From: a virus
Taxonomy: Duplodnaviria; Heunggongvirae; Uroviricota; Caudoviricetes
Strand: one strand, 5' to 3'
DNA length: 19,466 nt
Virus record (IMG/VR): IMGVR_UViG_3300010430_000005
Span: 1 to 19,466 of that record
Shown here in pieces: positions 1 to 13,064 of the stretch; positions within the stretch are counted from its first letter, which is position 1; every line of letters begins with the position of its first letter. Below the pieces are notes generated by a model, which was not told the DNA's origin, ran no database searches, and saw nothing but the letters and a program-made list of their open reading frames with translations. The position numbers were made by a program, and so were the translations under genes.

Positions 1-2
1 TA

Positions 3-431
3 GAGAAAAGAATTTCGCCCAAAGGTCGACGTACAAAATACTACAACCATGCGAACGACGAAACATTATATCGAGCTGTACACCACAACCATCCTTCTAC
101 AGTATGGACAAGAGAATCGGTAGAAAACTATTCGTGGCATTATCAACATTTCCTAAGTCTATGTGAGGAGTATACCTATAGGTACGGTAAAGTTCATGCG
201 ACCTACACAAAACTACATGATGTTCTTGCCAAACCTCCAGAGAACATTCCTAATGTTCCCGAAACGCCATTTAAACTTGCTATGGGTAGCAATCCAGAAT
301 GTATGGATCATAAAGACCCTGTGAAGTCATATCGAAGTTTCTACAAAACCAAACAAGACAGATTCAAAATGGTGTGGTCAAAGCGAGAAGTTCCCGATTG
401 GTTCGACCAAAAAATTCTAGAATGTTGTTGA
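3..431 (+). CDS. Pyrimidine-dimer DNA glycosylase family protein (DenV/Pyr_excise-like), 5' partial
   Basis: Manual translation of frame 3 gives ...HHNHPSTVWTRESVENYSWHYQHFLSLCEEYTYRYGKVH...YRSFYKTKQDRFKMVWSKREVPDWF. This motif pattern is typical of the phage pyrimidine dimer glycosylase family. Stop TGA 429-431. Not in the ORF track because the start lies outside the window. Confidence 0.75.
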   Translation, partial: EKRISPKGRRTKYYNHANDETLYRAVHHNHPSTVWTRESVENYSWHYQHFLSLCEEYTYRYGKVHATYTKLHDVLAKPPENIPNVPETPFKLAMGSNPECMDHKDPVKSYRSFYKTKQDRFKMVWSKREVPDWFDQKILECC

Positions 432-456
432 CACATAGAGTTTAGTAAGTTAGTGT
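428..456 (+). promoter_or_regulatory. Sigma70-type early promoter
   Basis: TTGACA-N17-TAGTGT upstream of ORF 483, with the GTTGTTGACA context that recurs through the window. Confidence 0.6.
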
Positions 457-482
457 TAGACAACACTAAGGAGAATGTATAG

Positions 483-818
483 ATGCAACAAGCACTCGAA
501 ACACTTATTGAAGAAATCAAAGCAGACTACTATGCATACACCGTCCGCGATGGGGATTACGACAACATTAGCGAAACTTCGAAAGAAATGATTCGAAAGT
601 TTAACGACAGTATTTCCATTAAAGAAGGTCGCAATTACTTCAAAATTATCTCCAATAAAAGCGTTTGGGGTTTTGTTGTTAAAAAAGCAGACGACAAGAA
701 ATTCAAACAAGGCGATATTCTGAAAGCGGCGGGGTGGTCGGCGCCCGCACGTAACCATGCAAGGGGTAACGTTTTTGGAGTGTACGAAATCCAGTGGACC
801 GGCCCGAATTACATGTAA
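483..818 (+). CDS. Conserved hypothetical phage protein (111 aa)
   Basis: RBS AAGGAG. The motif KYxKI...VWGFV...GDILKAAGWxAPARNxARGN recurs in T4-like phages. Confidence 0.85.
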   Translation: MQQALETLIEEIKADYYAYTVRDGDYDNISETSKEMIRKFNDSISIKEGRNYFKIISNKSVWGFVVKKADDKKFKQGDILKAAGWSAPARNHARGNVFGVYEIQWTGPNYM

Positions 819-831
819 GGAGACGAAAATA

Positions 832-930
832 ATGATCGAGCAAGAATATGATGGTATGCTAGCAGTTTTTGGTTTTTCTGAACCGTTTGACTGTTGGGAC
901 TATTCTGACCTAGACCAACCTTACTATTAA
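832..930 (+). CDS. Small hypothetical protein (32 aa, MIEQEYDGMLAVFGFSEPFDCWDYSDLDQPYY)
   Basis: AAGGAG at 817-822, ATG 832, TAA 928-930. Confidence 0.5.
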   Translation: MIEQEYDGMLAVFGFSEPFDCWDYSDLDQPYY

Positions 931-946
931 GATGTGCTGCGCTCTT

Positions 947-954
947 TATAAATA
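947..954 (+). promoter_or_regulatory. T4-type late promoter
   Basis: TATAAATA directly upstream of dps. Confidence 0.75.
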
Positions 955-984
955 AAAAGAATACACATTTTAATGGAGAAAAGC

Positions 985-1413
985 ATGGAACAACTAATTG
1001 AGACAATGAAAGTGGTATTAGGCACCTCTACTGCATTGTATATAAAGGCCCAAAATTATCACTGGAATGTAACTGGTCCTAATTTTGCAGAATACCATAA
1101 TTTCTTTGGTTCATTCTACGAAGAAGTTTACTCTTCTGTAGACACAACTGCTGAAGAGATCAGAAAATTGGGAGCCTTTACTCCTGGATCTTTAGAACGT
1201 TTTCTAGAACTGTCTATTATAGAAGAAGAGAAGTCTATACCCACACCTGACGTTATGTTTGCTAGGTTGGCTAATAGCAACGACGCTATGCTACGAGTTC
1301 TTTACGAGGCTTGCGATAGTGCAGAAGAGATAGGTGCTAGAGGTACTGTGAATTATCTAGAAGAACGTATCGGAATACACGAAAAACATGCTTGGATGCT
1401 AAAAAGTTTCTAA
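985..1413 (+). CDS. dps: Dps/ferritin-like DNA-protection protein
   Basis: KAQNYHWNVTGPNFxEYHxFFxxFYEE...DxxAEEIRKLG and terminal HEKHAWML are Dps signatures. Start 985 is preceded by GGAG; alternative start 973. Confidence 0.92.
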   Translation: MEQLIETMKVVLGTSTALYIKAQNYHWNVTGPNFAEYHNFFGSFYEEVYSSVDTTAEEIRKLGAFTPGSLERFLELSIIEEEKSIPTPDVMFARLANSNDAMLRVLYEACDSAEEIGARGTVNYLEERIGIHEKHAWMLKSF

Positions 1414-1430
1414 AAAGACAAAAAAAGATG

Positions 1431-1460
1431 TTGACAACAGCAACAAACCTGTTATAAATA
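1431..1460 (+). promoter_or_regulatory. Composite early/late promoter for tRNA array 1 leader
   Basis: TTGACA 1431-1436 and TATAAATA 1453-1460. The same geometry occurs at 18391-18420. Confidence 0.75.
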
Positions 1461-1488
1461 AACAAGTATATTAACGAGGAATTTAAAA

Positions 1489-1554
1489 ATGACTATTTGC
1501 ATGTATGAAATCTGGGAACAGTATTTTATTAATCTTGAGGGGGCTCGAGACTAA
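1489..1554 (+). CDS. Putative attenuator leader peptide 1 (MTICMYEIWEQYFINLEGARD)
   Basis: RBS GAGGA 1476-1480, ATG 1489, TAA 1552-1554. Codons 3-14 all match tRNAs of the array immediately downstream. Confidence 0.8.
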   Translation: MTICMYEIWEQYFINLEGARD

Positions 1555-1588
1555 AGTCTATATGCAAATAGATTTTAATTTTTTAACA

Positions 1589-1617
1589 CCCTCTAAGGAA
1601 ACTTAGGGGGCTTTTTT
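1589..1617 (+). terminator. Intrinsic terminator (attenuator) directly before tRNA-Cys
   Basis: CCCTCTAAG-GAAA-CTTAGGGGG followed by CTTTTTT. Confidence 0.85.
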
Positions 1618-1690
1618 GTTGGCGGAGCAAGATTGGTAATGCGCGGGATTGCAAATCCTTGAGGTATCGGTTCGAGTCCGGTCGCCAACT
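1618..1690 (+). tRNA. tRNA-Cys(GCA)
   Basis: Acceptor GTTGGCG/CGCCAAC, loop TTGCAAA, T-loop TTCGAGT, U73. Confidence 0.88.
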
Positions 1691-1710
1691 CTAAAACATA
1701 AGGAGAGAAA

Positions 1711-1815
1711 ATGCAGTGCAATTGGCTAAAGTTAGGCGGTAAATGGTATTGTTCCCATTGCGGAAATCAAGTTAAGGGTAGCCATAAAAAGGTCTGCCTT
1801 TTAAAAAATATGTAA
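1711..1815 (+). CDS. Small Cys-rich protein (34 aa, CxxC)
   Basis: RBS AGGAG; MQCNWLKLGGKWYCSHCGNQVKGSHKKVCLLKNM. Confidence 0.55.
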   Translation: MQCNWLKLGGKWYCSHCGNQVKGSHKKVCLLKNM

Positions 1816-1821
1816 TATTTT

Positions 1822-1893
1822 GGTGTTGTAGCTCAGCGGTAGAGCAACAGACTCATATTCTGTCGGTCGTAGGTTCGAATCCTACTAACACCA
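1822..1893 (+). tRNA. tRNA-Met(CAT), probably elongator
   Basis: GGTGTTG/TAACACC acceptor, loop CTCATAT; lacks the initiator GGG/CCC anticodon stem. Confidence 0.85.
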
Positions 1894-1902
1894 CTAAAAC
1901 AT

Positions 1903-1974
1903 GGCCCCATAGATTATGGGTTAGATCACCTCCCTTTCAAGGAGGAGAATCGGGTTCGAGCCCCGGTGGGGCTA
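1903..1974 (+). tRNA. tRNA-Glu(TTC)
   Basis: CCTCC-CTTTCAA-GGAGG anticodon arm, full cloverleaf. Confidence 0.9.
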
Positions 1975-1980
1975 CTAATT

Positions 1981-2066
1981 GCGAGAGTGGCAGAGTGGTC
2001 GATTGCGGCGGACTGTAAATCCGTTTCTGAAAAGACGCGCTAGTTCGAATCTAGCCTCTCGCACCA
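1981..2066 (+). tRNA. tRNA-Tyr(GTA)
   Basis: GCGGA-CTGTAAA-TCCGT, long variable arm, CCA encoded. Confidence 0.92.
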
Positions 2067-2069
2067 TAT

Positions 2070-2143
2070 AGTGGATTAGCTCAGGTGGTTAGAGCGAAGA
2101 GCCGATAACTCTTAGGTCACTGGTTCGAGTCCAGTATCCACTA
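2070..2143 (+). tRNA. tRNA-Ile(GAT)
   Basis: AAGAG-CCGATAA-CTCTT; AGTGGAT/ATCCACT acceptor. Confidence 0.9.
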
Positions 2144-2156
2144 CTGAAAATATTTT

Positions 2157-2230
2157 GTGTTAGTAGCTCAGTCAGGTAGAGCACTCGGTTGAAGCCCGGG
2201 GTGTCGTTGGTTCGAATCCAACCTTTCACA
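2157..2230 (+). tRNA. tRNA-Phe(GAA)
   Basis: CTCGG-TTGAAGC-CCGGG; acceptor stem has two U.U mismatches. Confidence 0.78.
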
Positions 2231-2235
2231 CTTAT

Positions 2236-2309
2236 TGGTAGGTAAGGGAATTGGTATACCTGTCGGTTTTTGGTACCGAAGTTTGTGGGTTCGAGGCCCA
2301 CCCTACCAG
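2236..2309 (+). tRNA. tRNA-Gln(TTG)
   Basis: TCGGT-TTTTGGT-ACCGA; U1-A72 and G73 as in Gln. Confidence 0.82.
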
Positions 2310-2314
2310 CTTAC

Positions 2315-2388
2315 AGGGGCGTGGTGTAACGGTAGCACGACGGCTTCCAACTCCGTTAGTCCGGGTTCGAAACCTGGCGCCCCTGCCA
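2315..2388 (+). tRNA. tRNA-Trp(CCA)
   Basis: AGGGGCG/CGCCCCT acceptor, loop TTCCAAC, G73-CCA. Confidence 0.88.
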
Positions 2389-2423
2389 ATAAAAGAAATG
2401 TGCTTCGCACGTTCTTCGAACAC

Positions 2424-2451
2424 AAACCGATCATTCATTTGGTCGGTTTTT
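2424..2451 (+). terminator. Terminator closing tRNA array 1
   Basis: AAACCGATCA-TTCATT-TGGTCGGTTT followed by T-run. Confidence 0.65.
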
Positions 2452-2647
2452 CTATGACAACAAAGGTTCCTAAGACTGAAAATAAAACGAACAAAAATAA
2501 GGTACTATTACTTTCCGCCGTTGTATAAACGAGTTTAACATCATTCTCAAATCTGTCAAGCATAAAATAACCTTTTTTTCCGCTTGTGTTTTGGTATTTT
2601 TTATGTTAAGTTACGAAATAATGAAATACAAAGAAAGGTTATATATT

Positions 2648-3010
2648 ATGTGGGTTTTTATGAATGATGCTTTCTTCTCGATTGTAGAAGATTATCAAGT
2701 TCCCGAGCAGTTTGTTATCCGTGCTCGAATTAAAGGAGATCTCGAAAACGCGTTTGGGGTAGCGCCGAGTGAAGTTATCGTAGATGCAGGTACAGACTAT
2801 AAATTTCGAATTTATGCTGATCGAGAGTTTGTTGCTAAAACTATGCAAAATCATGTTATGGAGATCGACTACGATAATTTTAAAGATTCTATCTCCTTTA
2901 AGGATAAAGAGCGTAAGCTGTATTATTCTAAAGTCTGGGCTGTAATGAACACTTGGCAAGAAAAATTGTATGGTGTGCGAGATTGGTGGACTCAATACCG
3001 TCAGCGTTGA
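2648..3010 (+). CDS. Conserved hypothetical phage protein
   Basis: Start reassigned to ATG 2648 (GAAAGG RBS); MWVFxxxAFFSIV...VIRAR..DL...DYKFR...IDYDNFK pattern. Confidence 0.8.
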   Translation: MWVFMNDAFFSIVEDYQVPEQFVIRARIKGDLENAFGVAPSEVIVDAGTDYKFRIYADREFVAKTMQNHVMEIDYDNFKDSISFKDKERKLYYSKVWAVMNTWQEKLYGVRDWWTQYRQR

Positions 3011-3013
3011 TAT

Positions 3014-3021
3014 TATAAATA
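3014..3021 (+). promoter_or_regulatory. T4-type late promoter
   Basis: TATAAATA upstream of the 3056/3543 operon. Confidence 0.75.
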
Positions 3022-3055
3022 AGCGGAATACTCATTATATAGAGGAGCCGTTAAA

Positions 3056-3541
3056 GTGACGTACAAAGATTACATCAAAGAGCAGATGTCTTTAGTAGAA
3101 GCAGCCAAATTCGACAATTGGGTAAAGCCTTCTACTAAAGACATCGAATTAGAATACAAAATAGAATATCAAATGAAACCCCTGAAGCAATTGACCAACG
3201 ACGCTTTTCCTGAGTTGGAAGATTTCAAAAAGGCCGTTAAAGCTGCGCGTGTCGTTGAAGTGACGCCTTCTATGGATCGTAAAATCCAATATAGAAGCGG
3301 GACCAAGACTAAAGAGCAACTATTGGGTTTAATCCGAGGTTACGCGTCATATCCTGAATTCCGCAACGAAAAAACAATAGATGCCATTTACCAAGGATTT
3401 GCGTATAATAAGCCAATGAAGATGCCGTTTGTTGTTAAGTTTAAAAACGGCGACATGAGGATCATGGGCGGCAATACTAGAATGGATGTCGCTTTCCAGA
3501 TGGGTATTAACCCTAAAGTGCTTGTCATAGAGGTTAAGTAA
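3056..3541 (+). CDS. Hypothetical late protein, possible ParB/Srx-like fold, capsid-targeting-like N-terminus
   Basis: RBS GAGGAG, GTG start; IMGGNTR resembles the ParB/Srx motif; begins MTYKDYIKE. Confidence 0.75.
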   Translation: MTYKDYIKEQMSLVEAAKFDNWVKPSTKDIELEYKIEYQMKPLKQLTNDAFPELEDFKKAVKAARVVEVTPSMDRKIQYRSGTKTKEQLLGLIRGYASYPEFRNEKTIDAIYQGFAYNKPMKMPFVVKFKNGDMRIMGGNTRMDVAFQMGINPKVLVIEVK

Positions 3542-3542
3542 A

Positions 3543-5600
3543 ATGCAAAAGAATTTTAAAGAATATATAGAAGAGTCACTAAATAGCCCTTTAGAATTCT
3601 ACATGACTGATGATACAGACATGCCTAGAGAAATCTATGCCGCCTTAAATCTAGACGGCACCGATTATGGTTTTTCTCTTGTGTTGTCTAAAACGGAAAA
3701 GGTATATCTGTTACACACATATAGAATTCTGAACGGTAAGAAAAGATATTGGTCATTCAAGACTAAGGTCGATATTCGCCCAGTTTTGTCGACTTCGTTG
3801 AAGTTCGTAGAGGCGTGTATGCCGTTCATACAAAGCAAAATGGATGGTATAATAATAGGTATGCCTGGAGGTAAAGATGCCGCAAAATACCAACGATTAT
3901 TAACTCTCGCACTGAAGAAAACCTACATTAATAAGTTCAAGGTTGTTCCGGTTAAGAAGCTTTCTGATAAAGTGGTTCCTAAGCTATTCATCATAAAGAA
4001 GTCAGTCGATCCTGTTAAGTTGTTTAAGTCTCAAATAATGTCTAAGTATTTTGAGATTGTTCCGAATGCTTCTAATTTGGATGAAGTGTTGACTGACGAG
4101 GTTGTCGATGATATCGCCAAACCTAAAAAGAAAATGAAGCCAAATGCATCTACAACACCTTCGACAAAATATAGTTTCTATGGACTCGAAACAGACACGG
4201 ACCATTCAGATGAAAAAGTTCAAGCTGTGTTTGATATGCCATCATCTGCTGATTTTGTTGACCACACTAAAAACACAGATGAGAATCTAGATGTAGAGTT
4301 GCCTGTGTTTGATACATCGAATGTTGGTATGTTTGAAGCTATGGTTGCCCTTACTGTAAATATGCCTAGTATGTCAGCCAAGATTCGAGAAAAGGGGTTT
4401 GAAGAGTCGGAGTTTAATAAGGACAATTTCAAATGGGTTTTGGGGAAATTGGACAACCCTGCCATGAAAGATATTTTGTCGGTTGTAGGTCTTTTCGACA
4501 AAGTGTCCGGAAAATATGCAGAGCCTGAAAAGTTCATACCTTTGTTGAAGAAGTACGCTTCTGAATATAAGAAAACTATAGCAAGTAGCGGAGATTATGA
4601 CCCCGCATCTATTGATGTGTTGTATAAAATGGGGGAATACAATGAAAAGCTAAAGCAGAATTCAAACCCGAGTTTGAGTTCAAATATCCAAATAAAGAAA
4701 GAAGCTACCGCAGTTAAGATATCGGATCTTAAATCGGGCGTCCCGGGCAATTTAGCGCCCGAATTTGGCGACGATGGTGCATTTGATGTCAGCAGTCCGA
4801 TAAGTGAAATTAAAGAGTCTGTAACATGGTTAACTAAGACATACGAAAAAAGCCTAGACGAATTAGCTAACAACGACTATGGCACTTATTCTCATGTCTA
4901 TAAATATACTGGATCCAGCTACGATTATTATAATGATAGAATTAGGGAATCTGTCCAAGAACTAGCTACATCTTGGTCGGCTACAGGTGACGTCACGGAA
5001 AAAGTAATAGCTAACGCCGCAAAAAAGGTAATCGACGAAAGCCCTCATGTCGTTGATATGTATCGAGCATTTGAGAAAGTGATTCCTTCGCCCGAACCGC
5101 TATGGACGTATAGAGCAGGTACCATACCTGAAGAACTTGCAAATCTGATAGAGCCCGGATACGAGTACGTAGACCCTGCTTTCTTGTCTACTTCTTTGAG
5201 GCGCGACACTTCTTTCGGTAATAATTTGAGGTTAGCTATCTACAACCCTAAAGGAACAAAGATGTTGCCTATGTTAAATAGGTCTAAACACTCTATCGAG
5301 AAAGAAGTTATCCTACCTCCTATGTCTTTACTGAAAGTAATAAGGATTGACAAGGCAGAATATGGTCGTTATATACTTACTTGTGTTAATATGGGATCCC
5401 TAATGGACTCTTTCTTAAACAAAGCAGAATTAGCCGAACAAACACAGTTAAATATGATAGGAAGGTACGCAATGGCATTTAGCGAAGAAAAGAAAAAAGA
5501 AAAAGAATATGATCCTGACGGTAAGTACTCTTCAAATATTGACGATACTTTGAGTAAGGCTCTTATAGCTGCTTTGAAAAGAGCAAAGAAGCAGAAATAA
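3543..5600 (+). CDS. alt: Alt-like ADP-ribosyltransferase (C-terminal VIP2-type ART domain)
   Basis: R-S-E triad: LWTYRAG, FLSTSL, EKEVILP. Size 685 aa, late promoter, N-terminus MQKNFKEYIEE. Confidence 0.8.
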   Translation: MQKNFKEYIEESLNSPLEFYMTDDTDMPREIYAALNLDGTDYGFSLVLSKTEKVYLLHTYRILNGKKRYWSFKTKVDIRPVLSTSLKFVEACMPFIQSKMDGIIIGMPGGKDAAKYQRLLTLALKKTYINKFKVVPVKKLSDKVVPKLFIIKKSVDPVKLFKSQIMSKYFEIVPNASNLDEVLTDEVVDDIAKPKKKMKPNASTTPSTKYSFYGLETDTDHSDEKVQAVFDMPSSADFVDHTKNTDENLDVELPVFDTSNVGMFEAMVALTVNMPSMSAKIREKGFEESEFNKDNFKWVLGKLDNPAMKDILSVVGLFDKVSGKYAEPEKFIPLLKKYASEYKKTIASSGDYDPASIDVLYKMGEYNEKLKQNSNPSLSSNIQIKKEATAVKISDLKSGVPGNLAPEFGDDGAFDVSSPISEIKESVTWLTKTYEKSLDELANNDYGTYSHVYKYTGSSYDYYNDRIRESVQELATSWSATGDVTEKVIANAAKKVIDESPHVVDMYRAFEKVIPSPEPLWTYRAGTIPEELANLIEPGYEYVDPAFLSTSLRRDTSFGNNLRLAIYNPKGTKMLPMLNRSKHSIEKEVILPPMSLLKVIRIDKAEYGRYILTCVNMGSLMDSFLNKAELAEQTQLNMIGRYAMAFSEEKKKEKEYDPDGKYSSNIDDTLSKALIAALKRAKKQK

Positions 5601-5636
5601 CCAGAATCTAAGATTTTTGGTATTCTTTTAAAACCA

Positions 5637-5695
5637 ACACAACATATTGTGGTTTATTTGTAATATAGCACATGTAAAACCACAATATGTTGTGT
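5637..5695. repeat. 19-bp perfect inverted repeat with NrdR-box-like arms
   Basis: ACACAACATATTGTGGTTT (5637-5655) / AAACCACAATATGTTGTGT (5677-5695). Confidence 0.8.
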
Positions 5696-5722
5696 CTAAT
5701 TTTTGTCACGTATAAACTACAC

Positions 5723-5917
5723 ATGAATTTCCCTTCTATAGAAACAAAAGAAGATTATGACGAATTCAAACAGGCTTTTTGGTGTTGGTTTGATAGTCTT
5801 TCGATTGAAGAGAAGAAAAAGTTCTGGTATTACGGCGAAGATATAGCGGAAACCAACTTTTTCTTTAGATTTTTTTCAAAAAAGATAGAAGAAAACTGCT
5901 TCATCTGTTATAAATAA
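5723..5917 (+). CDS. Hypothetical protein (64 aa)
   Basis: MNFPSIETKEDYDEFKQAFWCWFDSL...; weak RBS. Confidence 0.55.
   Translation: MNFPSIETKEDYDEFKQAFWCWFDSLSIEEKKKFWYYGEDIAETNFFFRFFSKKIEENCFICYK
5909..5916 (+). promoter_or_regulatory. T4-type late promoter for array 2 leader
   Basis: TATAAATA. Confidence 0.75.
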
Positions 5918-5945
5918 AAACATATTTAGAAAGGATAAAAATTCG

Positions 5946-6035
5946 ATGTTTACGATAACAAGACTCCCTGTGCGCTCGAAAGGTGGATTATCAAATCCGT
6001 CTAACGATACGCTATTGCGAGGTTATCTTAAATAA
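5946..6035 (+). CDS. Putative attenuator leader peptide 2 (MFTITRLPVRSKGGLSNPSNDTLLRGYLK)
   Basis: RBS GAAAGGA ~5929-5935, ATG 5946, TAA 6033-6035; contains antiterminator TTGCGAGG 6015-6022. Confidence 0.78.
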   Translation: MFTITRLPVRSKGGLSNPSNDTLLRGYLK

Positions 6036-6061
6036 TCATATTTAGATTATGTATTTGGTAG

Positions 6062-6094
6062 GCCTCGCAAGTTTTTTAACTGCGAGGCTTTTTT
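6062..6094 (+). terminator. Intrinsic terminator (attenuator) before tRNA array 2
   Basis: GCCTCGCA-agttttttaac-TGCGAGGC then TTTTTT. Confidence 0.88.
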
Positions 6095-6207
6095 GTTGTT
6101 GACAAGGAACATTCGATAACGTAAAACACATTTGTTGACGAGACGAAAAGAATAAGACACGTGATAGTGTTTAATATTTAGATTCTCTAGTTAGCAAAAA
6201 AGTTGTT

Positions 6208-6236
6208 GACAAACTAAACAGACTTAGTTATGTTGA
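6208..6236 (+). promoter_or_regulatory. Sigma70-type early promoter (near-duplicate at ~6823-6851)
   Basis: AAAAAAGTTGTTGACAAACTAAA.AGACTTAGTTAT occurs twice; TTGACA-N17-TATGTT. Further TTGACA at 6099. Confidence 0.65.
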
Positions 6237-6289
6237 CGAAATAACGTAGACATAAGATGTTTACACGCTCTTTGAAAATTTGGTATTTG

Positions 6290-6510
6290 TCTTAGACTTA
6301 GGTCGATAATAGACTGAAAACAAAAACTACAAACCGATAACGTGTTCGGTAGTTTTGTTAGAGAGATCAAGTAAGGATATCCTGTAAATCTTGATTGAGA
6401 AACTCTGTTTTCATATGATCTTGGTATTTCGAGCGCATATGAAAATGGAGATTGGTACTGATCGGACGGCAAGGTCAGTTAAATAGCCCTAAAGATAAAG
6501 TCTGGGAATA
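6290..6510 (+). ncRNA. Candidate multibranched structured RNA
   Basis: Closing helix 6292-6299/6497-6504 with four internal hairpins; no convincing ORF. Confidence 0.45.
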
Positions 6511-6534
6511 GCCTAACACATAAGACTGTTTTGT

Positions 6535-6608
6535 GGGTCTATAGCATAATTGGTTAATGCAGTCCGCTCATAACGGAAAGATTCTTGGTTCAAGTCCAAG
6601 TGGACCTA
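6535..6608 (+). tRNA. tRNA-CAT, likely Ile2 (lysidine type), copy a
   Basis: GTCCG-CTCATAA-CGGAA; Ile2-like body; acceptor extended by a 13-bp flanking inverted repeat. Confidence 0.8.
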
Positions 6609-6626
6609 CAAAACAGTCTTAATTAT

Positions 6627-6705
6627 GGCCACGTGGTGAAATGGTAAACACAGCAGACTTAAAATCTGCCGCGCGAGCTTGCCGGTTCGAGTCCGGCCGT
6701 GGCTA
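6627..6705 (+). tRNA. tRNA-Leu(TAA)
   Basis: GCAGA-CTTAAAA-TCTGC, variable arm. Confidence 0.92.
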
Positions 6706-6712
6706 CTAAAAT

Positions 6713-6799
6713 GGAGAGGTGGTAGAGTCTGGTTTATTACAGCGGTCTTGAAAACCGCCGGACCGCAAGGTCCCCAGGGTTCGAATCCCTGTCTCTCCG
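6713..6799 (+). tRNA. tRNA-Ser(TGA)
   Basis: GCGGT-CTTGAAA-ACCGC, long variable arm, G73. Confidence 0.92.
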
Positions 6800-6980
6800 C
6801 TTACAAGTTAGGAAAAAAAGTTGTTGACAAACTAAAAAGACTTAGTTATTAATAACGAAACATAATAACTTGCTTTATAAGTAAAGGTGGTTAGGTGTAT
6901 AAACGTTGCTGTTAGCGCAACTACCTAATTTCCTTGAGGAGTAATAAAAGAGCGTCGTTTAGACGCTGCCTCAGAAACAT

Positions 6981-7056
6981 TCCCCGGTAGCTCAGTTGGT
7001 AGAGCAACTGACTGTTAATCAGTGGGTCGGCGGTTCGAGCCCGTCCCGGGGAGCCA
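6981..7056 (+). tRNA. tRNA-Asn(GTT)
   Basis: Canonical cloverleaf, GCCA end. Confidence 0.95.
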
Positions 7057-7095
7057 AAGTTTTAGTGCAGGTTGACGAAACCGTAAGACGCGAAT

Positions 7096-7172
7096 GGGCC
7101 TGTAGCATAATTGGTTAATGCAGTCCGCTCATAACGGAAAGATTCTTGGTTCAAGTCCAAGTGGGCCTACCA
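7096..7172 (+). tRNA. tRNA-CAT, likely Ile2, copy b
   Basis: Identical to the 6535 copy from D-arm to T-arm; ACCA end. Confidence 0.82.
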
Positions 7173-7257
7173 GTTACTTTAAAGATGGGAATAGCATTTA
7201 GCTCATCTTTAAAATCGTCCGATATATATATTTCGGACAAATTAAATGCAATTTTAT

Positions 7258-7330
7258 TGCGGAGTGGAGCAGTGGTCAGCTCGTCGGGCTCATAACTCGA
7301 AGGTCGGTGGTTCGAATCCACCCTCCGCAA
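7258..7330 (+). tRNA. Initiator-type tRNA-fMet(CAT)
   Basis: GCGGAGTGGAGCAG...CAGCTCGTCGGGCTCATAACTCGAAGG is an fMet-type body. Confidence 0.88.
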
Positions 7331-7338
7331 CTAAAGAC

Positions 7339-7416
7339 GCCCCCTTGGGCAAATTGGTAAAGTCGCTCGGTTTAGGTCCGAGAGTTGTCCCGGTTCGAGT
7401 CCGGGAGGGGGTACCA
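7339..7416 (+). tRNA. tRNA-Leu(TAG)
   Basis: CTCGG-TTTAGGT-CCGAG, ACCA end. Confidence 0.88.
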
Positions 7417-7479
7417 AAATTCAAGAAAGTTAACGTCTAGCTAATAGGCGTGACAGGCAGGGAGAGACCTGCAATTATT

Positions 7480-7554
7480 GGGAGTATAGCATAATTGGTT
7501 AATGCAGTCCGCTCATAACGGAAAGATTGACGAGTTCGAATCTCCCTTCTCCTA
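7480..7554 (+). tRNA. tRNA-CAT Ile2-like copy c, degenerate
   Basis: Same D and anticodon arms as copies a/b; T-stem only 3 bp. Confidence 0.55.
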
Positions 7555-7557
7555 CTA

Positions 7558-7620
7558 AAGGATCAGTTCCGCAAAAAGAAAAAACTTTTTATTTGGAAAA
7601 AAGCACAAAATGATCCTGTT
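7558..7620 (+). ncRNA. AGG..TTCMGCAA..CCTG element, copy A
   Basis: 7-bp stem AGGATCA/TGATCCT, conserved TTCCGCAA, internal hairpin with loop ATTTGGA. Confidence 0.7.
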
Positions 7621-7622
7621 TT

Positions 7623-7695
7623 GCCCCTATAGCTCAGCTGGTAGAGCAACTGATTTGTAATCAGTAGGTCCGCGGTTCAAGTCCGTGTGGGGGCA
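7623..7695 (+). tRNA. tRNA-Thr(TGT)
   Basis: CTGAT-TTGTAAT-CAG arm, canonical cloverleaf. Confidence 0.93.
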
Positions 7696-7712
7696 CTAAA
7701 TTGAATTAATTT

Positions 7713-7791
7713 GATCCCTTAGCTCAGCTGGTCATAGAGCGGCCGACTTTTAATCGGCAGGTCCTCGGTTCGAATCCGAGAGGGATCACCA
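7713..7791 (+). tRNA. tRNA-Lys(TTT)
   Basis: GCCGA-CTTTTAA-TCGGC, ACCA end. Confidence 0.92.
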
Positions 7792-7801
7792 TTATTCAAA
7801 T

Positions 7802-7875
7802 CTATCTGTAGCGCAGCCTGGTAGCGCATCTGTTTTGGGTACAGAAGGTCGTGGGTTCGAATCCCTCCAGATAGA
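7802..7875 (+). tRNA. tRNA-Pro(TGG)
   Basis: TCTGT-TTTGGGT-ACAGA. Confidence 0.88.
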
Positions 7876-7975
7876 CAAAAGGCAAGACCTTAGTTTCGTT
7901 AGTCAGTTATGCTTGACGGAAGGTTAGGGGACGACATGGACGCGAAAGGCGGGGGTTGCATGTTGATAAGGTTTT

Positions 7976-8040
7976 AAGGGTCAATTCCGCAAAAAAGAAA
8001 AAACTTTTTATTTGGAAAAAAGCACAAACTGACCCTGTTT
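7976..8040 (+). ncRNA. AGG..TTCMGCAA..CCTG element, copy B
   Basis: Stem AGGGTCA/TGACCCT (compensatory change relative to copy A); interior near-identical to A. Confidence 0.7.
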
Positions 8041-8135
8041 AATGATGGTAGAGATCTGTTTTTAGACTAGAAACTACTAGGGTAAAATGGCAGGTTTGGG
8101 ATAATTGCGAGATGGTGGGGCAAATTATTCGACAT

Positions 8136-8206
8136 GGTGCTATGGTATATGGGTATTATTCTTGTCTGTCTAACAAGAGAATCGGGTTCGAGTCCCGGTA
8201 GCACTG
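8136..8206 (+). tRNA. tRNA-Asp(GTC)
   Basis: CTTGT-CTGTCTA-ACAAG, G73. Confidence 0.85.
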
Positions 8207-8234
8207 CTAATGTTTATGTCTTATAGCATATTAT

Positions 8235-8261
8235 GGGGGATTAGTTCAGTTGGTAGAGCGC
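8235..8261 (+). pseudogene. 5' tRNA fragment (acceptor strand + D-arm)
   Basis: GGGGGATTAGTTCAGTTGGTAGAGCGC then abrupt loss of tRNA sequence. Confidence 0.65.
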
Positions 8262-8267
8262 AACAAT

Positions 8268-8343
8268 GGCCGAGTAGCTCAGTGGTAGAAGCGCTAGTTT
8301 TACACACTAGATGTCGTAGGTTCGATCCCTACCTCGGCTACCA
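8268..8343 (+). tRNA. tRNA-Val(TAC)
   Basis: CTAGT-TTTACAC-ACTAG, ACCA end. Confidence 0.9.
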
Positions 8344-8351
8344 TTTTTCTT

Positions 8352-8927
8352 TCAGCATGTTTTCTTTTGATAGATTCTGAAATTCTTTTTTTTGTGTTCC
8401 TCAGATTTAGCTTTACCCGTTAACGCTTTTCTGTTTTTCTCTCCTCTCGATTTATTTGTTTTCCTATTATTTTCCTTTATTTTTTCTATAGTTTCTTGTG
8501 TATGTTTTCTACCAGATGATTTTTCTCTCAGTATTTGTTTAGTTTTTTCTGAATGTTTATTTCCTAAATTGGGTTTATGATTTCTGGTGCTACTAGCTTT
8601 ACGGTTTGCTTCTAAACATATCATTCTTTGATGATGGGATAGCTCCCTAAACTGCCCATCAGAAGCTTTGTTTAAAATATAAAGAGCATAATTCATTTTA
8701 GTTACGTGTTCCTTTTCAGAAACCATTTTGGGTAATAATCTGTGACAAATATAATGCTCTTTAAATGTTAATAAAACCTTATTATCTTCACTATTATCAC
8801 CTCCAAGTGATTTAGGAATTATATGATGGGATTCAAAATAGATATCTTCTCCTTTGAATCTAGATTGTGATTTTGCTCTGTCTACTATCACATAATAAAT
8901 ATTGGTATATTTGTTGTTCAGAAACAT
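8352..8927 (-). mobile_element. HNH homing endonuclease with NUMOD3-like repeats
   Basis: ESHHIIPKSLGG...NKVLLTFKEHYICHRLL; NLGNKHSEKTK and GRKHTQETIEKI repeats; own late promoter (TATAAATA on minus strand, 8964-8971). Likely frameshift in a T-run near the 3' end. Confidence 0.9.
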
Positions 8928-8983
8928 TTATTATCCTTTACTTTAAAACAATTGCTCTACCAATATTTATAAAACAAAATTTT

Positions 8984-9016
8984 CAAGGTCGAAGGTTCGA
9001 GCCCGTCACCGACTAC
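8984..9016 (+). pseudogene. 3' tRNA fragment (T-arm + acceptor strand)
   Basis: AAGGTCGAAGGTTCGAGCCCGTCACCGACTA-CTA just beyond the HNH promoter. Confidence 0.65.
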
Positions 9017-9024
9017 TAAAATAC

Positions 9025-9053
9025 TTGACACGGCCTATGTATGTGTTATAAAT
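9025..9053 (+). promoter_or_regulatory. Sigma70-type promoter
   Basis: TTGACA-N16-TATAAT upstream of tRNA-Arg(TCT). Confidence 0.7.
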
Positions 9054-9058
9054 TTTAT

Positions 9059-9139
9059 GCCCCCTGTCCCCTCATCAGTCTTCTAAACTGATCCTTAAAG
9101 AGGGATGGAAGGTGCGGGGTTCGATTCCTCCAGGGGGCT
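9059..9139 (+). tRNA. Non-canonical D-arm-less tRNA-Arg(TCT)-like gene
   Basis: GCCCCCTG/CAGGGGGC acceptor, ATCAGT-CTTCTAA-ACTGAT anticodon arm, TTCGATT T-loop, no D-arm, enlarged variable region. Confidence 0.65.
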
Positions 9140-9189
9140 CTTAAAATCATATAAATACTTTTACTTTAAATGTTAGAAGTAGAAGTTAT

Positions 9190-9891
9190 ATGGATTGCCG
9201 ACGTATTTATGATTCTATCATAGAAAAACGAAAATTAGAAACACCAGAAGGGTATGTTGAGAAACATCATATTCTACCGAGAAGTTTGGGTGGAAACGAT
9301 GACGCGGAAAACATCGTATCTCTCACAGCCAGAGAACATTTTGTATGTCATTATCTATTGGCTAAAATGTACGAAAAAGAAACGTTTGAGTGGTATAAGA
9401 TGAATCATGCCTTTATCATTATGAAAGCATCTTCAGATAATCATAAAAGGTATTTCAACAGTAGGTTATACGAAAACTTGCGTAAAAATTTTTCATCTGT
9501 TATGTCAAAGTTGCAGACTGGCAGTGGCAACTCACAATATGGTACTAGATGGGTACATAACATATCTTTAAAGCAAAGTCGTAAGATCCCTAAAAACGAT
9601 CCTCTCCCTGATGGTTGGAGCGAGGGCAGGAAAATTAAATGGCATAATAAAATAGTATGCTGTGGACTGTGCAGTAAAGAATTCGAACAAAAGGCTACTG
9701 AGAGATTCTGCAGTGTTGAATGTAAAAAGAAACATCAACAACCAGATTTTATTTGTAGAGAAGAAGAATTCATTAATCTATACTGTGATTTAGGCTCAAT
9801 GAACAAATCGCTAAAGGCCATGGGTTATCCGGGAGCCATATCACATTATTATAGATGGGCGAAGAAGGTCATTGACTCAAACTCTTTATGA
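9190..9891 (+). mobile_element. HNH homing endonuclease
   Basis: EKHHILPRSLGG.DDAENIVSLTAREHFVCHYLL; late promoter TATAAATA 9150-9157. Confidence 0.9.
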
Positions 9892-9903
9892 AGTTACTTA
9901 TAT

Positions 9904-9923
9904 AAGTCCTCGCGGGATCGCCA
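9904..9923 (+). pseudogene. 3' tRNA fragment ending GCCA
   Basis: AAGT-CCTCG-CGGGATC-G-CCA = end of T-loop, T-stem, acceptor strand, CCA. Confidence 0.55.
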
Positions 9924-9987
9924 ATTTTATGTCGCGAAAGCATTTGGATGTTGATTTGTTTGGACAAATCTAGCGGCGCCAGAATTC

Positions 9988-10073
9988 AAGGAACATTTCC
10001 GCAAGCAACTTAGGATAAAAACAAACTTGAAATTTGTCTAAGTGGTTCGATTCCACAAATAAAGTGTTCCTGT
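9988..10073 (+). ncRNA. AGG..TTCMGCAA..CCTG element, copy C, with anticodon-like and T-like arms
   Basis: Stem AGGAACA/TGTTCCT; ACAAA-CTTGAAA-TTTGT; GTGG-TTCGATT-CCAC. Confidence 0.7.
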
Positions 10074-10081
10074 AGATTAAA

Positions 10082-10134
10082 AAGGATGAGTTCAGCAAAA
10101 TTTATGCATTTGAACAAGCACAGATCATCCTGTT
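10082..10134 (+). ncRNA. AGG..TTCMGCAA..CCTG element, copy D
   Basis: Stem AGGATGA/TCATCCT, TTCAGCAA, ATTTGAA..AAGCACA core shared with A/B. Confidence 0.65.
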
Positions 10135-10143
10135 TTATTTTGT

Positions 10144-10214
10144 GCGGGTATGGTGTAATGGTAACATGCGAGATTTCCAATCTCTTGTTGTCGGTTCGAG
10201 TCCGTCTACCCGCT
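10144..10214 (+). tRNA. tRNA-Gly(TCC)
   Basis: CGAGA-TTTCCAA-TCTCT, U73. Confidence 0.9.
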
Positions 10215-10222
10215 CTAAACTT

Positions 10223-10299
10223 CCCGATTTAGTGTTAGCGGTTAAGCACAGTAGATTGTGGATCTACTAGGTTTGGTTCGAATCCAAAGGTCGGGACCA
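10223..10299 (+). tRNA. tRNA-His(GTG), alphaproteobacterial type (no G-1, A73)
   Basis: GTAGA-TTGTGGA-TCTAC; ends GGTCGGG-A-CCA; base -1 is T. Confidence 0.88.
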
Positions 10300-10321
10300 A
10301 TTTTAACAGAAGGAGAAATGT

Positions 10322-10510
10322 ATGTACGGTATACGAGTTCCTCTTGCTGTGGACGATTATATTTGGGTAACTACTGACAGCCCGAATAACAGAATGTTTG
10401 AACATAAACCACTTCTGTTTTCCACAGAAGAAGAGGCTTACAAGGCGGCTAAAGTGTTTGGTCCTCTTGCGTCGGTAAAGAAATACGAAGAAACAGAAGC
10501 TTTTTGCTAA
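10322..10510 (+). CDS. Hypothetical protein (62 aa)
   Basis: AAGGAG RBS, compact ORF between tRNAs. Confidence 0.7.
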   Translation: MYGIRVPLAVDDYIWVTTDSPNNRMFEHKPLLFSTEEEAYKAAKVFGPLASVKKYEETEAFC

Positions 10511-10525
10511 TAAATCTTTGTATTT

Positions 10526-10598
10526 GGGGTGTTAGCTCAGTCGGGAGAGCAGTTGCTTTGCAAGCATCAGGTCATCGGTTCAAGTCCGATACACTCCA
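10526..10598 (+). tRNA. tRNA-Ala(TGC)
   Basis: GGGGTGT/ACACTCC with G3.U70, loop TTTGCAA. Confidence 0.93.
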
Positions 10599-10695
10599 CT
10601 AAAAGATTATCTTGCCAAGCAAGCAAGCGAAATGATGGTTGACATCATATAAAGAATAACATATAAATTATAATATGTAATCGAAGGAAAGTGAA

Positions 10696-10860
10696 ATGGA
10701 AGTAGTGTTTAAATTTCCGGTTGTGTTCGTTAAAACGAATGGAAAATACAATGTCTTGATTTCGCATGTGTTGTCGACTATCACGACTCTTGCTGCAATT
10801 ACTTTTATGCCTTGGGCAATGCCCGTTTGGATAGCACAAGCTCAACGTAGTTGCCTTTAA
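10696..10860 (+). CDS. Small predicted membrane protein (54 aa)
   Basis: AAGGAA RBS; MEVVFKFPVVFVKTNGKYNVLISHVLSTITTLAAITFMPWAMPVWIAQAQRSCL. Confidence 0.55.
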   Translation: MEVVFKFPVVFVKTNGKYNVLISHVLSTITTLAAITFMPWAMPVWIAQAQRSCL

Positions 10861-10867
10861 GAATATT

Positions 10868-10939
10868 GCGGGTATAGCTCAGGGGTAGAGCATTTCGTTG
10901 CCAACGAAAGTGTCGTGAGTTCGAATCTCATTACCCGCT
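10868..10939 (+). tRNA. tRNA-Gly(GCC)
   Basis: TTTCG-TTGCCAA-CGAAA, U73. Confidence 0.92.
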
Positions 10940-11024
10940 CAAAAAAATGTTCGACAAACAAAGAAAGTAGTTGACATACCTTATCAAATGTCTTATGTTG
11001 TTAATACAACAAAAGGAGACTACA

Positions 11025-11234
11025 ATGTTTACACTCGAACTTAGAAACGGTTTTGATAGCGAATTGGCCGAGGCACAAGGTCGAGTGTCTAAGACGGCTC
11101 CTGTTATGGCTGTTCTAATCGAAAAAAACGAAAACGGCATTCGGAGTGTAGTAGATGTCGTACAAGGTACGATGAAAGAAATTGAGAGCTACTTCAAAAA
11201 CAAAGACATTAAAGAAGTGCTTAACAAGATTTAA
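11025..11234 (+). CDS. Hypothetical protein (69 aa)
   Basis: AAGGAG RBS before ATG 11025; TTGACA promoter at ~10971. Confidence 0.75.
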   Translation: MFTLELRNGFDSELAEAQGRVSKTAPVMAVLIEKNENGIRSVVDVVQGTMKEIESYFKNKDIKEVLNKI

Positions 11235-11246
11235 AGTTGGTTATAT

Positions 11247-11319
11247 TGCGGGGTGGAGCAGCGGTCAGCTCGTCGGTTTCATATGCCGAAGGTCGTAGGT
11301 TCGAATCCTACCCCCGCAA
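11247..11319 (+). tRNA. Second initiator-like tRNA-Met(CAT) with altered anticodon arm
   Basis: fMet-type body; TCGGT-TTCATAT-GCCGA. Confidence 0.8.
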
Positions 11320-11430
11320 CAAAACTAGATTATTAGTGACGTGCCCTTACTATGTGTTTTGGGTTACATGACAATAAGGATCAATTTGCTAATGATTGCA
11401 TTGTCTTGACGATAATTTGGTGACGCTATT

Positions 11431-11553
11431 AAGGAACAGTTCAGCAAACAATGTTTACCAACCAGTGGGTCGTGGGTTCGAATCCCACCATCCGTCAAGT
11501 GGCGGATGTAGTTCAGAGGTAGAACAACCGGCAATACAAAAGATGTTCCTGTT
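11431..11553 (+). ncRNA. Element copy E enclosing a circularly permuted tRNA body
   Basis: AGGAACA/TGTTCCT stem and TTCAGCAA; inside, the tRNA 3' half (11462-11495) precedes the 5' half (11502-11531). Confidence 0.72.
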
Positions 11554-11555
11554 TT

Positions 11556-11632
11556 GGAAGCATAGCATAATTGGTTAATGCCCACGTCTCATAAACGTGT
11601 CGATCTTGGTTCAAGTCCAAGTGCTTCCACCA
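11556..11632 (+). tRNA. tRNA-CAT (Ile2-like family, copy d)
   Basis: Same D- and T-arms as 6535/7096; CACGT-CTCATAA-ACGTG; ACCA end. Confidence 0.8.
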
Positions 11633-11670
11633 TAAATACCTTTGTCGATGTTAAACACAAAGGAGATTTT

Positions 11671-11850
11671 ATGTCTAAATTCGCAATACTCAGAAACGAA
11701 AACATTGTTCAGCATATAATAATGGTCGGAGAACGTTTAAATTATAAAGATCCGAAAGCAGTCGACTTAGTATTCGACACTGAAAAGAATGCGGCAGAAG
11801 TTGCGAAAATATTGGGTGGCAAAGTTATCGAGTATGATGAAGCAGCTTGA
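11671..11850 (+). CDS. Hypothetical protein (59 aa)
   Basis: AAGGAG RBS before ATG 11671. Confidence 0.7.
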   Translation: MSKFAILRNENIVQHIIMVGERLNYKDPKAVDLVFDTEKNAAEVAKILGGKVIEYDEAA

Positions 11851-11852
11851 AT

Positions 11853-11935
11853 GCGGATGTGGTGGAACGGCAGACACGGGATGCTCAAAATATCCTGCCT
11901 CTAGTGGCGTGTGGGTTCGAATCCCACCATCCGCA
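11853..11935 (+). tRNA. tRNA-Leu(CAA)
   Basis: GGGAT...CTCAAAA...ATCC arm, variable arm, GCGGATG/CATCCGC acceptor. Confidence 0.88.
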
Positions 11936-12041
11936 CTAATATAGAATACCTTTGTAAGGAACTAGGCGCTATAATAATTGGGTTTGTTCGTAAATCCCGA
12001 CTATAACTAAGAAGAAAGGAAAATTTATGTCGTAGATTGAA

Positions 12042-12281
12042 ATGACTTGTAAAGAAGTGGTTTTCCACTTCAATAAGAAACATCTTGAAGATGACACAAT
12101 TCCTATGTGGGTTGTAAAAGCAAAGGGGCAGACACATTACGTCAAACATGTTGAATGTAATGTGGGATGGTCAACTAAAGAGACGCCAGATAATCCTTCA
12201 ACTAAAGGATCAATCAAGGTTAAGAATTGTCTCTTGACTATCAATGACCAAGAAGCGTTAATCGAAAAGGTGCCTCCCTAA
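12042..12281 (+). CDS. Conserved hypothetical T4-like phage protein
   Basis: VFHFNKKHLED.TIPMWV...YV.HV.C...WSTKETP...TKGSIK pattern. Confidence 0.8.
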   Translation: MTCKEVVFHFNKKHLEDDTIPMWVVKAKGQTHYVKHVECNVGWSTKETPDNPSTKGSIKVKNCLLTINDQEALIEKVPP

Positions 12282-12332
12282 CCAGAAAATGATTAATACC
12301 AAAAATCAGAAATCTAGTTAAGGAGAATTAAA

Positions 12333-12710: not shown

Positions 12711-12836
12711 CCTTTAATTCCTGGGCAAGAATTAAAACTGCCTAAATATTGATGTTGACTTGCAATGCTACGTGTGGTGTAAGCAACGCGGATGACCCGA
12801 ATACTGTAAAAAGTTGCAGGTTGCCAGTCCGCATTT

Positions 12837-12910
12837 GCCGTATTAGCTCAACTGGATAGAGCACTCCCCTCCTAAGGGAACGGTTGTAGGTTCGAATCCT
12901 ACATGCGGCA
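12837..12910 (+). tRNA. tRNA-Arg(CCT)
   Basis: CTCCC-CTCCTAA-GGGAA, canonical cloverleaf. Confidence 0.88.
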
Positions 12911-12915
12911 CATAT

Positions 12916-13044: not shown

Positions 13045-13064
13045 ACATGGCAGAAAGGGCAGAA

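Follow-up and report, generated by a model that had tools for sequence, protein, structure and literature searches.

Introduction

The pheST operon, through its pheM leader, and the T-box riboswitches control aminoacyl-transfer RNA (tRNA) synthetase genes through tRNA charging. The control of the tRNA genes themselves is generally placed at the promoter, through growth rate and the stringent response, and at processing. In the multivalent attenuators of amino-acid operons in enterobacteria (ilvGMEDA and thr; also trpL, hisL, leuL and pheL; textbook knowledge, see also PMC1183508 and PMC3082878), a short promoter-proximal open reading frame (ORF) is followed by a terminator. The same order is found in leader 2, the element studied here, which lies at positions 5909 to 6094 of a 19,466-nucleotide (nt) stretch of phage DNA (IMG/VR record IMGVR_UViG_3300010430_000005, positions 1 to 19,466; hereafter the window) and precedes an array of tRNA genes. 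In literature searches, no account of attenuation acting on tRNA genes was found.

The window makes up the first 19.5 kb of a contig of 150 kb (40% G+C) from an uncultured T4-like phage in IMG/VR, whose nearest cultured relatives by major capsid protein are the Sinorhizobium phages phiM12 and phiN3 (67% identity). ARAGORN and Rfam identified 30 canonical tRNA genes and a two-piece transfer-messenger RNA (tmRNA) in the contig, all of them inside the window. Array 1 (1618–2388) encodes tRNAs for Cys, Met, Glu, Tyr, Ile (GAT anticodon), Phe, Gln and Trp, and array 2 (6535–15111, plus strand) provides those for the remaining amino acids plus six more tRNAs with a CAT anticodon. An earlier note, made from the letters of this DNA, had read leader 2 as an attenuator ahead of array 2 whose peptide complements that of a first leader ahead of array 1 and matches the tRNAs of array 2. 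In this study, we compared leader 2 with related units in other uncultured phages, examined its alternative folds and tested its composition against the adjacent tRNA genes. The family of units, their covariation and the array match support the core of that reading: leader 2 is probably a ribosome-mediated leader-peptide transcription attenuator situated between late genes and array 2.

Results

Organization and predicted folding of leader 2

The promoter motif, ribosome-binding site, 29-codon ORF and terminator described in the earlier note were all found in place, on the plus strand. The motif TATAAATA (5909–5916) lies inside the 14-mer CTGTTATAAATAAA (5905–5918), 29 nt before the leader ATG, and overlaps the stop codon of a 76-amino-acid (aa) ORF (5687–5917). 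A Shine–Dalgarno (SD) sequence, AAAGGA (5930–5935), stands 10 nt before the ATG of the predicted leader ORF (5946–6035), whose 29 codons encode MFTITRLPVRSKGGLSNPSNDTLLRGYLK. Codons 14–18 contain an internal hairpin with the core GGAU-N6-AUCC (5981–6002), which is present in the minimum-free-energy fold and may act as an RNA polymerase pause or synchronizing element. The ORF is followed by an intrinsic terminator (6061–6094) consisting of the 5′ arm GGCCTCGCA (region 3), the 3′ arm TGCGAGGCT (region 4) and a run of six T. Its hairpin is closed by G6061/G6062–C6088/U6089, has A6070 bulged and an inner GUU/AAC stem, and has a calculated stability of −15.8 to −18.1 kcal/mol; a simple hairpin scan with a loop limit of 8 missed it.

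The putative antiterminator strand, region 2 (TTGCGAGGTT, 6015–6024), ends about 7–8 nt before the stop codon of the leader ORF. Its first part, TTGCGAGG (6015–6022), is the exact complement of CCTCGCAA (6063–6070), as had been noted from the sequence, and the pairing extends to 10 pairs when two G–U pairs are counted. The duplex between the leader and the 5′ arm of the terminator (6015–6024 with 6061–6070) has a predicted energy of −16.3 kcal/mol (z = −4.6, p = 0.003), which was better than that of 299 of 300 shuffles of the 3′ part of the ORF.

Alternative folds are predicted for this RNA. A transcript ending at 6072 folds as the antiterminator, in which region 2 pairs with region 3 (2:3), either without a ribosome or with one stalled near codon 9. 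As isolated structures, the antiterminator is slightly more stable than the terminator (−19.9 vs. −18.1 kcal/mol). When positions 6015–6045, which a ribosome at the stop codon would occupy, were masked, the terminator alone remained in the predicted fold. The minimum-free-energy fold of the full-length RNA pairs region 2 with 5962–5976, and the fold of the nascent RNA favors 2:3.

A family of leader/terminator units in uncultured large phages

When the 150-kb contig was scanned with a mechanical unit finder, leader 1 and leader 2 were the only family members recovered, and each of them precedes a tRNA array. Leader 1, the paralogous unit (1429–1617, plus strand), comprises a TTGACA/TATAAATA promoter, an ORF (1489–1554) and a terminator (1589–1610) that abuts the tRNA-Cys gene. 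Exact copies of the 14-mer CTGTTATAAATAAA occur in the contig only at these two leaders; the TTGACA −35 element is present at leader 1 and absent from leader 2. Given that the two leaders have this 14-mer in common and belong to a single family, the earlier statement that they do not share sequence has to be withdrawn.

Comparative genomics, which the earlier note had named as a check, yielded 19 leader/terminator units in 16 lineages of uncultured large phages that share the geometry of leader 2. The units were located through two anchors that are independent of the leader, a Dps-like gene and a boxA-like motif. From the Dps-like gene that precedes leader 1, contigs L092–L096 were found, in which Dps is followed by a TTGACA/TATAAATA promoter, an SD sequence, an ORF of 29–38 codons, a terminator and tRNA-Cys, in this order. 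All 19 units have an ORF of 21–39 codons, a distance of 25–34 nt from the stop codon to the hairpin, and a T-run, and in 17 of them the leader segment that pairs best ends 3–10 nt before the stop codon (in the two exceptions, L092 and L198, it lies 25–28 nt before the stop). The promoter (G/T)ATAAATA, an SD sequence (AAGGA or GAGGA) 8–12 nt upstream of the start codon, and the start context TTCRATG are conserved. The units precede either a tRNA gene directly or a promoter/boxA block that is followed by tRNA genes. Leader 2 has every one of these features, and the sole respect in which it differs is a concerted GCGAGG/CCTCGC change in its pairing segments.

The leaders fall into two types, and leader 2 is of type B. 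It is colinear, codon for codon, with the leaders of L171, L310 and L185, each of which has 29 codons; the common pattern consists of MFT at the start, GGA at codon 14, AAT CCG at codons 17–18, GAT at codon 21 and GGT TAY at codons 26–27. The core of the GGAU-N6-AUCC hairpin is invariant in six type-B leaders (including L171, L173, L215, L310 and L185), and its outer pairs vary. The residues G14, N17 and P18 of the type-B peptides would thus be conserved because the hairpin is encoded there. On these comparative grounds, a chance origin of the leader-2 ORF is excluded, and the ORF belongs to a conserved family.

Covariation of three RNA segments

Since a MAFFT alignment set the terminator of the window one column out of register, the pairings were tabulated unit by unit instead. 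In nearly all units, the copy in the leader, the 5′ arm and the 3′ arm follow the consensus GGAGGG/CCCTCC/GGAGGG. In leader 2, the corresponding segments are GCGAGG/CCTCGC/GCGAGG: the three are altered together, and both pairings are preserved. Smaller concerted changes were found in L299, which has an additional G–C pair in all three segments, in the L094 group and in leader 1 (CTTGAGGGG/CCCTCTAAG/CTTAGGGGG). The three-strand covariation is the strongest structural evidence that the copy within the ORF is an antiterminator and not a coincidence.

Match between leader composition and the adjacent tRNA array

The codon list given for leader 2 in the earlier note was correct, and so was the absence of Cys, Glu, Trp, Gln and internal Met from the peptide; Phe and Tyr, which are also array-1 amino acids, occur once each. 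Ile is encoded by ATA in leader 2 and by ATT or ATC in leader 1, again as described. All amino acids served by the first block of array 2 (6535–8343, plus strand; 13 tRNAs: four CAT, Leu-TAA, Ser-TGA, Asn, Leu-TAG, Thr, Lys, Pro, Asp and Val) are sampled in leader 2. The codons reported as unsampled (Ala, His, AGY and AGG) are indeed missing, and the tRNAs concerned (His, Ala, Arg-CCT and Ser-GCT) lie in later blocks. The proposed match between leader 2 and the tRNAs of array 2 stands overall, except for Arg-TCT and Arg-ACG, for which the contig contains look-alikes lacking a D arm and no canonical genes. Residues from the array-1 set make up 13 of 20 in leader 1 and 3 of 28 in leader 2 (2 of 28 if ATA is assigned to the CAT Ile-like tRNA), and the association between leader and array class within the window was significant by Fisher's test (p = 1.3e-4; 2.8e-5 with ATA counted to array 2). 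Jointly, the two leaders cover 19 of the 20 amino acids, and His is found in neither.

The association extends to the family. Arrays are truncated at many loci, and we defined an array as ending at a gap of over 3 kb or at the next unit. Across the 16 lineages, a mean fraction of 0.73 of the leader residues had a tRNA in the array of the same unit, compared with 0.59 in permuted pairings (p < 5e-5), and the mean coverage of array amino acids was 0.98, compared with 0.84 (p < 5e-5); the units are phylogenetically related, and these p-values overstate their independence. Only 4 of 177 array amino acids were absent from the cognate leader. The association held within type A (p = 0.01 and 0.0005) and within type B (p = 0.03). 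Trp occurs in a leader if and only if the array has tRNA-Trp (both in nine cases, neither in three), and the same is true of Gln and tRNA-Gln (both in 11, neither in two). Leader 2 is the sole type-B homologue without Trp, and its array has no tRNA-Trp, the gene for which is located in array 1; like L171, it has no Gln, and tRNA-Gln is absent from array 2 and likewise encoded in array 1. Conversely, leader 2 contains Ile (ATA), Lys and Arg, which its homologues mostly lack (Lys and Arg occur in L310 and L185), and array 2 carries CAT Ile-like, Lys and Arg tRNAs. At the codon level, array anticodons can read 292 of the 354 leader codons under strict wobble rules, compared with 266 ± 6 in synonymous shuffles weighted by codon usage. 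The match is strongest upstream of the antiterminator (78% vs. 58% in the last eight codons, p = 1.5e-5), in the part of the ORF where a stalled ribosome would keep region 2 exposed.

Late promoters upstream of leader 2

The motif TATAAATA was found 24–41 nt upstream of the gene for the major capsid protein and three adjacent structural genes, as well as upstream of a 746-codon Alt-like gene. Because it precedes the capsid gene and neighboring structural genes, TATAAATA is, judged by its placement, the late promoter of the phage and of the T4 type. Upstream of leader 2, a gene (3543–5600) for a 685-aa Alt-type ADP-ribosyltransferase (PF03496) is preceded by a further TATAAATA at 3014. With TATAAATA at 3014 and at 5909, late transcripts would therefore reach leader 2 from two starts.

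The flanks of leader 2 gave no close relatives. The ADP-ribosyltransferase had distant homologues only and no relative among the viral contigs, and the 76-aa ORF had no homologue but itself, with one further contig, L087, being identical. Exact searches with terminator and tRNA patterns for relatives of the leader-2 flank gave no match, and blastn against cultured phages found nothing for 5600–6540 and tRNA matches only elsewhere.

The head of array 2

Downstream of the terminator, tandem sigma-70-type promoters (6095–6262, plus strand) have TTGACA or TTGACG at 6100, 6136, 6206 and 6233, and they are followed by a boxA-like 18-mer, CACGCTCTTTGAAAATTT (6264–6281, plus strand), that heads array 2. 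The caveat of the earlier note that sigma-70 promoters lie past the terminator is thus borne out, with four sites and a boxA-like element in addition. The promoter block is kept in relatives, and the boxA-like 18-mer recurs in 27 distinct phage contigs of up to 381 kb, where it lies between strong promoters and a tRNA array; many pattern matches in the metagenome were chance matches within coding sequence and were discarded. The boxA of rrnB contains GCTCTTTAACAA (PMC2176067), and CGCTCTTTGAAAA of array 2, a putative Nus-factor site, resembles it in sequence. A conserved hairpin region follows the boxA-like element, and the head of array 2 (6095–6330) is laid out like that of an rRNA operon. 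These heads suggest Nus-type processive antitermination of phage tRNA arrays. Among 24 boxA heads with enough upstream sequence, eight have a late-type promoter, an SD sequence, a short ORF and a CCCTCC...GGAGGG terminator ahead of the promoter block.

Other features of the arrays and the window

The later blocks of array 2 (10144–15111, plus strand) contain Gly-TCC, His, Ala, Gly-GCC, two CAT tRNAs, Leu-CAA, Arg-CCT and Ser-GCT, and stand behind homing-endonuclease genes and additional promoter-like sites. Neither ARAGORN nor Rfam called an Arg-TCT or Arg-ACG tRNA in the contig; the sole Arg tRNA is Arg-CCT at 12837. The D-arm-less tRNA-like sequences mentioned above, with a TCT anticodon at 9059–9139 and an ACG anticodon at 13513–13560 and about 14332, have good acceptor, anticodon and T arms and were called by neither program; they are probably the sequences that the earlier note had taken for Arg-TCT and Arg-ACG. 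The TCT look-alike lies directly behind a TTGACA...TGTTATAAATT promoter, and the ACG look-alike is apparently split by about 800 nt that hold a minus-strand ORF. The four CAT tRNAs at 6535, 7096, 7480 and 11556 are near-identical; in T4-like phages, some of the nearest homologues carry an Ile annotation and others a Met annotation, and an Ile2 identity is plausible for all four. Those at 7258 and 11247 resemble initiator tRNA. A two-piece (permuted) tmRNA of the alphaproteobacterial type (18954–19299) encodes the tag ANDNYAPEMAIAA. DNA of the window was also present in a marine-sediment metagenome run.

Further small elements were seen in the related contigs. A mini-array of Arg-TCT, Leu-TAA, (Ile-TAT) and Met lies just upstream of the Dps gene in L092–L097; the contig of the window begins only 970 nt upstream of Dps, and a counterpart may lie beyond its end. 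A further small ORF, METRSEDILLSTLIKSCSATCKRHHELPSV, is conserved together with a terminator, GGGCAGGA...TCCTGCCC, some 2.5 kb ahead of the Arg-TCT mini-array (L093 2118–2256, L094 7016–7154 and L095 2109–2247); this unit is outside the CCCTCC family. Straight after the leader terminator of L092, a tRNA-like sequence (10672–10745) has a CAT anticodon loop and a CCA end and was not called by ARAGORN.

Discussion

From the anatomy and the comparative data, we infer translation of the leader-2 ORF, termination that depends on translation speed, and tRNA supply as the signal. Late transcripts starting at TATAAATA (5909), and probably also those of the upstream late operon (3014–5917), would carry the 29-codon ORF, the last third of which holds the copy (6015–6024) of the 3′ arm of the terminator. 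A fast ribosome that reaches the stop codon would cover region 2; the terminator (6061–6094) would then fold, and transcription, including that of the upstream late operon, would end. A ribosome lagging in the first 20 or so codons would instead allow region 2 to capture the 5′ arm once it is made, so that the terminator would be blocked and the polymerase would continue across the early promoters of the array and the boxA-like site into the tRNA genes. These first codons are almost all for amino acids with tRNAs in array 2, as those of leader 1 are for array 1. Since array 2 has its own promoters past the terminator, the attenuator would gate only late read-through that starts upstream. Early in infection, array 2 would presumably be transcribed from its tandem sigma-70 promoters, with the leader-2 unit providing a demand-dependent late input. 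More tentatively, and with somewhat less than an even chance of being correct, the phage may possess two barely overlapping tRNA regulons, each gated by a sensor of decoding speed written in its own codons. Slow decoding of any sampled codon, in the late phase or once host tRNAs have become scarce or been cleaved by defense nucleases, would then open the matching array, and the second sensor would act late only and feed an rrn-like boxA; such an arrangement would amount to demand-driven homeostasis.

Several points weigh against an attenuator that senses tRNA supply. Structurally, the 10-nt spacing between the SD sequence and ATG of leader 2 is long, and no conserved 1:2 anti-antiterminator was found among the units; an untranslated leader would therefore read through by default. 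As for composition, leader 2 on its own is a modest sampler: 25 of its 28 residues are in the set of array 2 (p = 0.026 vs. proteome composition; 26 when ATA goes to array 2), and it covers 11 of 13 array amino acids, with His and Ala missing (p = 0.48). Its Phe and Tyr belong to array 1, and the one canonical Arg tRNA of the phage (CCT) does not read its Arg codons, AGA, CGC and CGA, which would be matched by the D-arm-less look-alikes at most. The relatedness of the units also lessens the weight of the permutation tests. With regard to position, the terminator closes the late ADP-ribosyltransferase operon, in itself a sufficient reason for a terminator, and of 24 boxA heads in other phages, just 8 are preceded by a leader unit at a distance of up to 650 nt. 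The stretch from the terminator to the first tRNA gene holds four sigma-70-type promoters as well as a boxA-like site, and most array-2 transcription may therefore not depend on the unit.

The points on position are those on which the best-surviving alternative draws. The terminator could be an ordinary operon-end terminator or insulator that stops transcription of the late ADP-ribosyltransferase operon and protects the early promoters of the tRNA genes, with the ORF as a passenger. The terminator does come after a late operon, and the array does have its own promoters and boxA-like site. In G003 and G004, phages related through the capsid protein, tRNA arrays are present and no family unit was found at the array heads inspected, with an ordinary 87-aa gene and a terminator directly before tRNA-Cys in G003, and the cultured Stenotrophomonas phage DLP_6, also capsid-related, has 37 tRNAs and no unit by the criteria used here. 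We nevertheless consider this explanation unlikely, given that it accounts neither for the constant distances and the conservation of ORF length and start context nor for an arm copy within the ORF that changes in step with both arms, and leaves the match in composition between leader and array unexplained.

A second alternative retains translation and alters the signal. The unit could be a translation-coupled attenuator that senses general translation capacity, such as ribosome supply or the coupling between RNA polymerase and the ribosome, and acts as a timer of the late phase, with the codon match as a by-product of shared phage codon usage. The structural evidence fits such a sensor equally well, and leader 2 contains no runs of a single codon; about 25 codons occur once each, so that one scarce tRNA would create one slow step. 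What speaks for particular tRNAs is that the match between leader and array survives both permutation among real leaders and synonymous shuffling by phage codon usage, and that the two leaders of a single genome use complementary sets of amino acids. We judge a sensor of general capacity to be improbable.

The possibility that the ORF encodes a functional micro-protein, or that the terminated leader transcript of about 170 nt acts as a small RNA, with the terminator merely ending the gene, seems very unlikely to us. The type-B peptides have G14, N17–P18, D21 and a Gly-rich C-terminal end in common, as a functional peptide might; these residues, however, coincide with RNA elements, namely the GGAU/AUCC hairpin and the GGAGGG copy, and apart from this, the type-A peptides cannot be aligned with those of type B. 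Most of the changes between homologues are non-synonymous. In L274, an L185-type variant, the antiterminator nucleotides are kept but the frame is shifted (…DLRTWGLRI), which suggests that the conserved entity is the RNA rather than the C-terminal peptide. A protein- or tRNA-binding riboswitch of the T-box or PyrR kind, in which the ORF would be irrelevant, is scarcely credible: although Rfam gave sub-threshold matches to the PyrR site and the L10 leader (E = 0.4–1.5), these reflect the terminator/antiterminator shape only, no Rfam family matched the unit at the gathering score, the T-box family RF00230 matched neither at the gathering score nor at E ≤ 5, no specifier or T-box motif was found, and a conserved SD sequence and ORF are present.

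If the attenuator reading of leader 2 is correct, a classic mechanism would here be put to a new use, by combining multi-codon sensing with gating of the cognate tRNA genes, and tRNA supply would come under direct feedback control. This would shed light on how large phages deploy their tRNA arrays and why these arrays are split into blocks, and it could represent a phage response to codon-usage mismatch or to host defenses by which tRNAs are depleted or cleaved. The units are both short and modular, and leader sequences could be used to predict the tRNAs that a block should supply.

Comparison with known systems places leader 2 and the head of array 2 among three kinds of regulation. The array-2 head resembles rrn operons in its tandem TTGACA promoters followed by the boxA-like CGCTCTTTGAAAA; it differs from them in that the site precedes phage tRNA arrays and not rRNA genes, and binding of NusB/NusE is putative. 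Leader 2 itself resembles the enterobacterial attenuators in three further respects beyond the order of ORF and terminator: an alternative pairing would compete for the 5′ arm of the terminator, a ribosome that has come to the end of the ORF would mask this pairing, and the regulatory codons correspond to what is provided by the genes that follow. Unlike the enterobacterial attenuators, however, it precedes tRNA genes and not genes for biosynthetic enzymes, samples about 25 codons for about 11 amino acids, each used once or a few times, in place of codon runs, has no evident conserved 1:2 hairpin, and is driven by a phage late promoter with independent promoters after it. The pheST (pheM) attenuator and the T-box riboswitches likewise exert decoding or charging feedback on genes of the translation apparatus via termination. 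Whereas pheM senses one amino acid and T-boxes bind uncharged tRNA directly, with no ORF, leader 2 would sample many codons and target the tRNA genes themselves.

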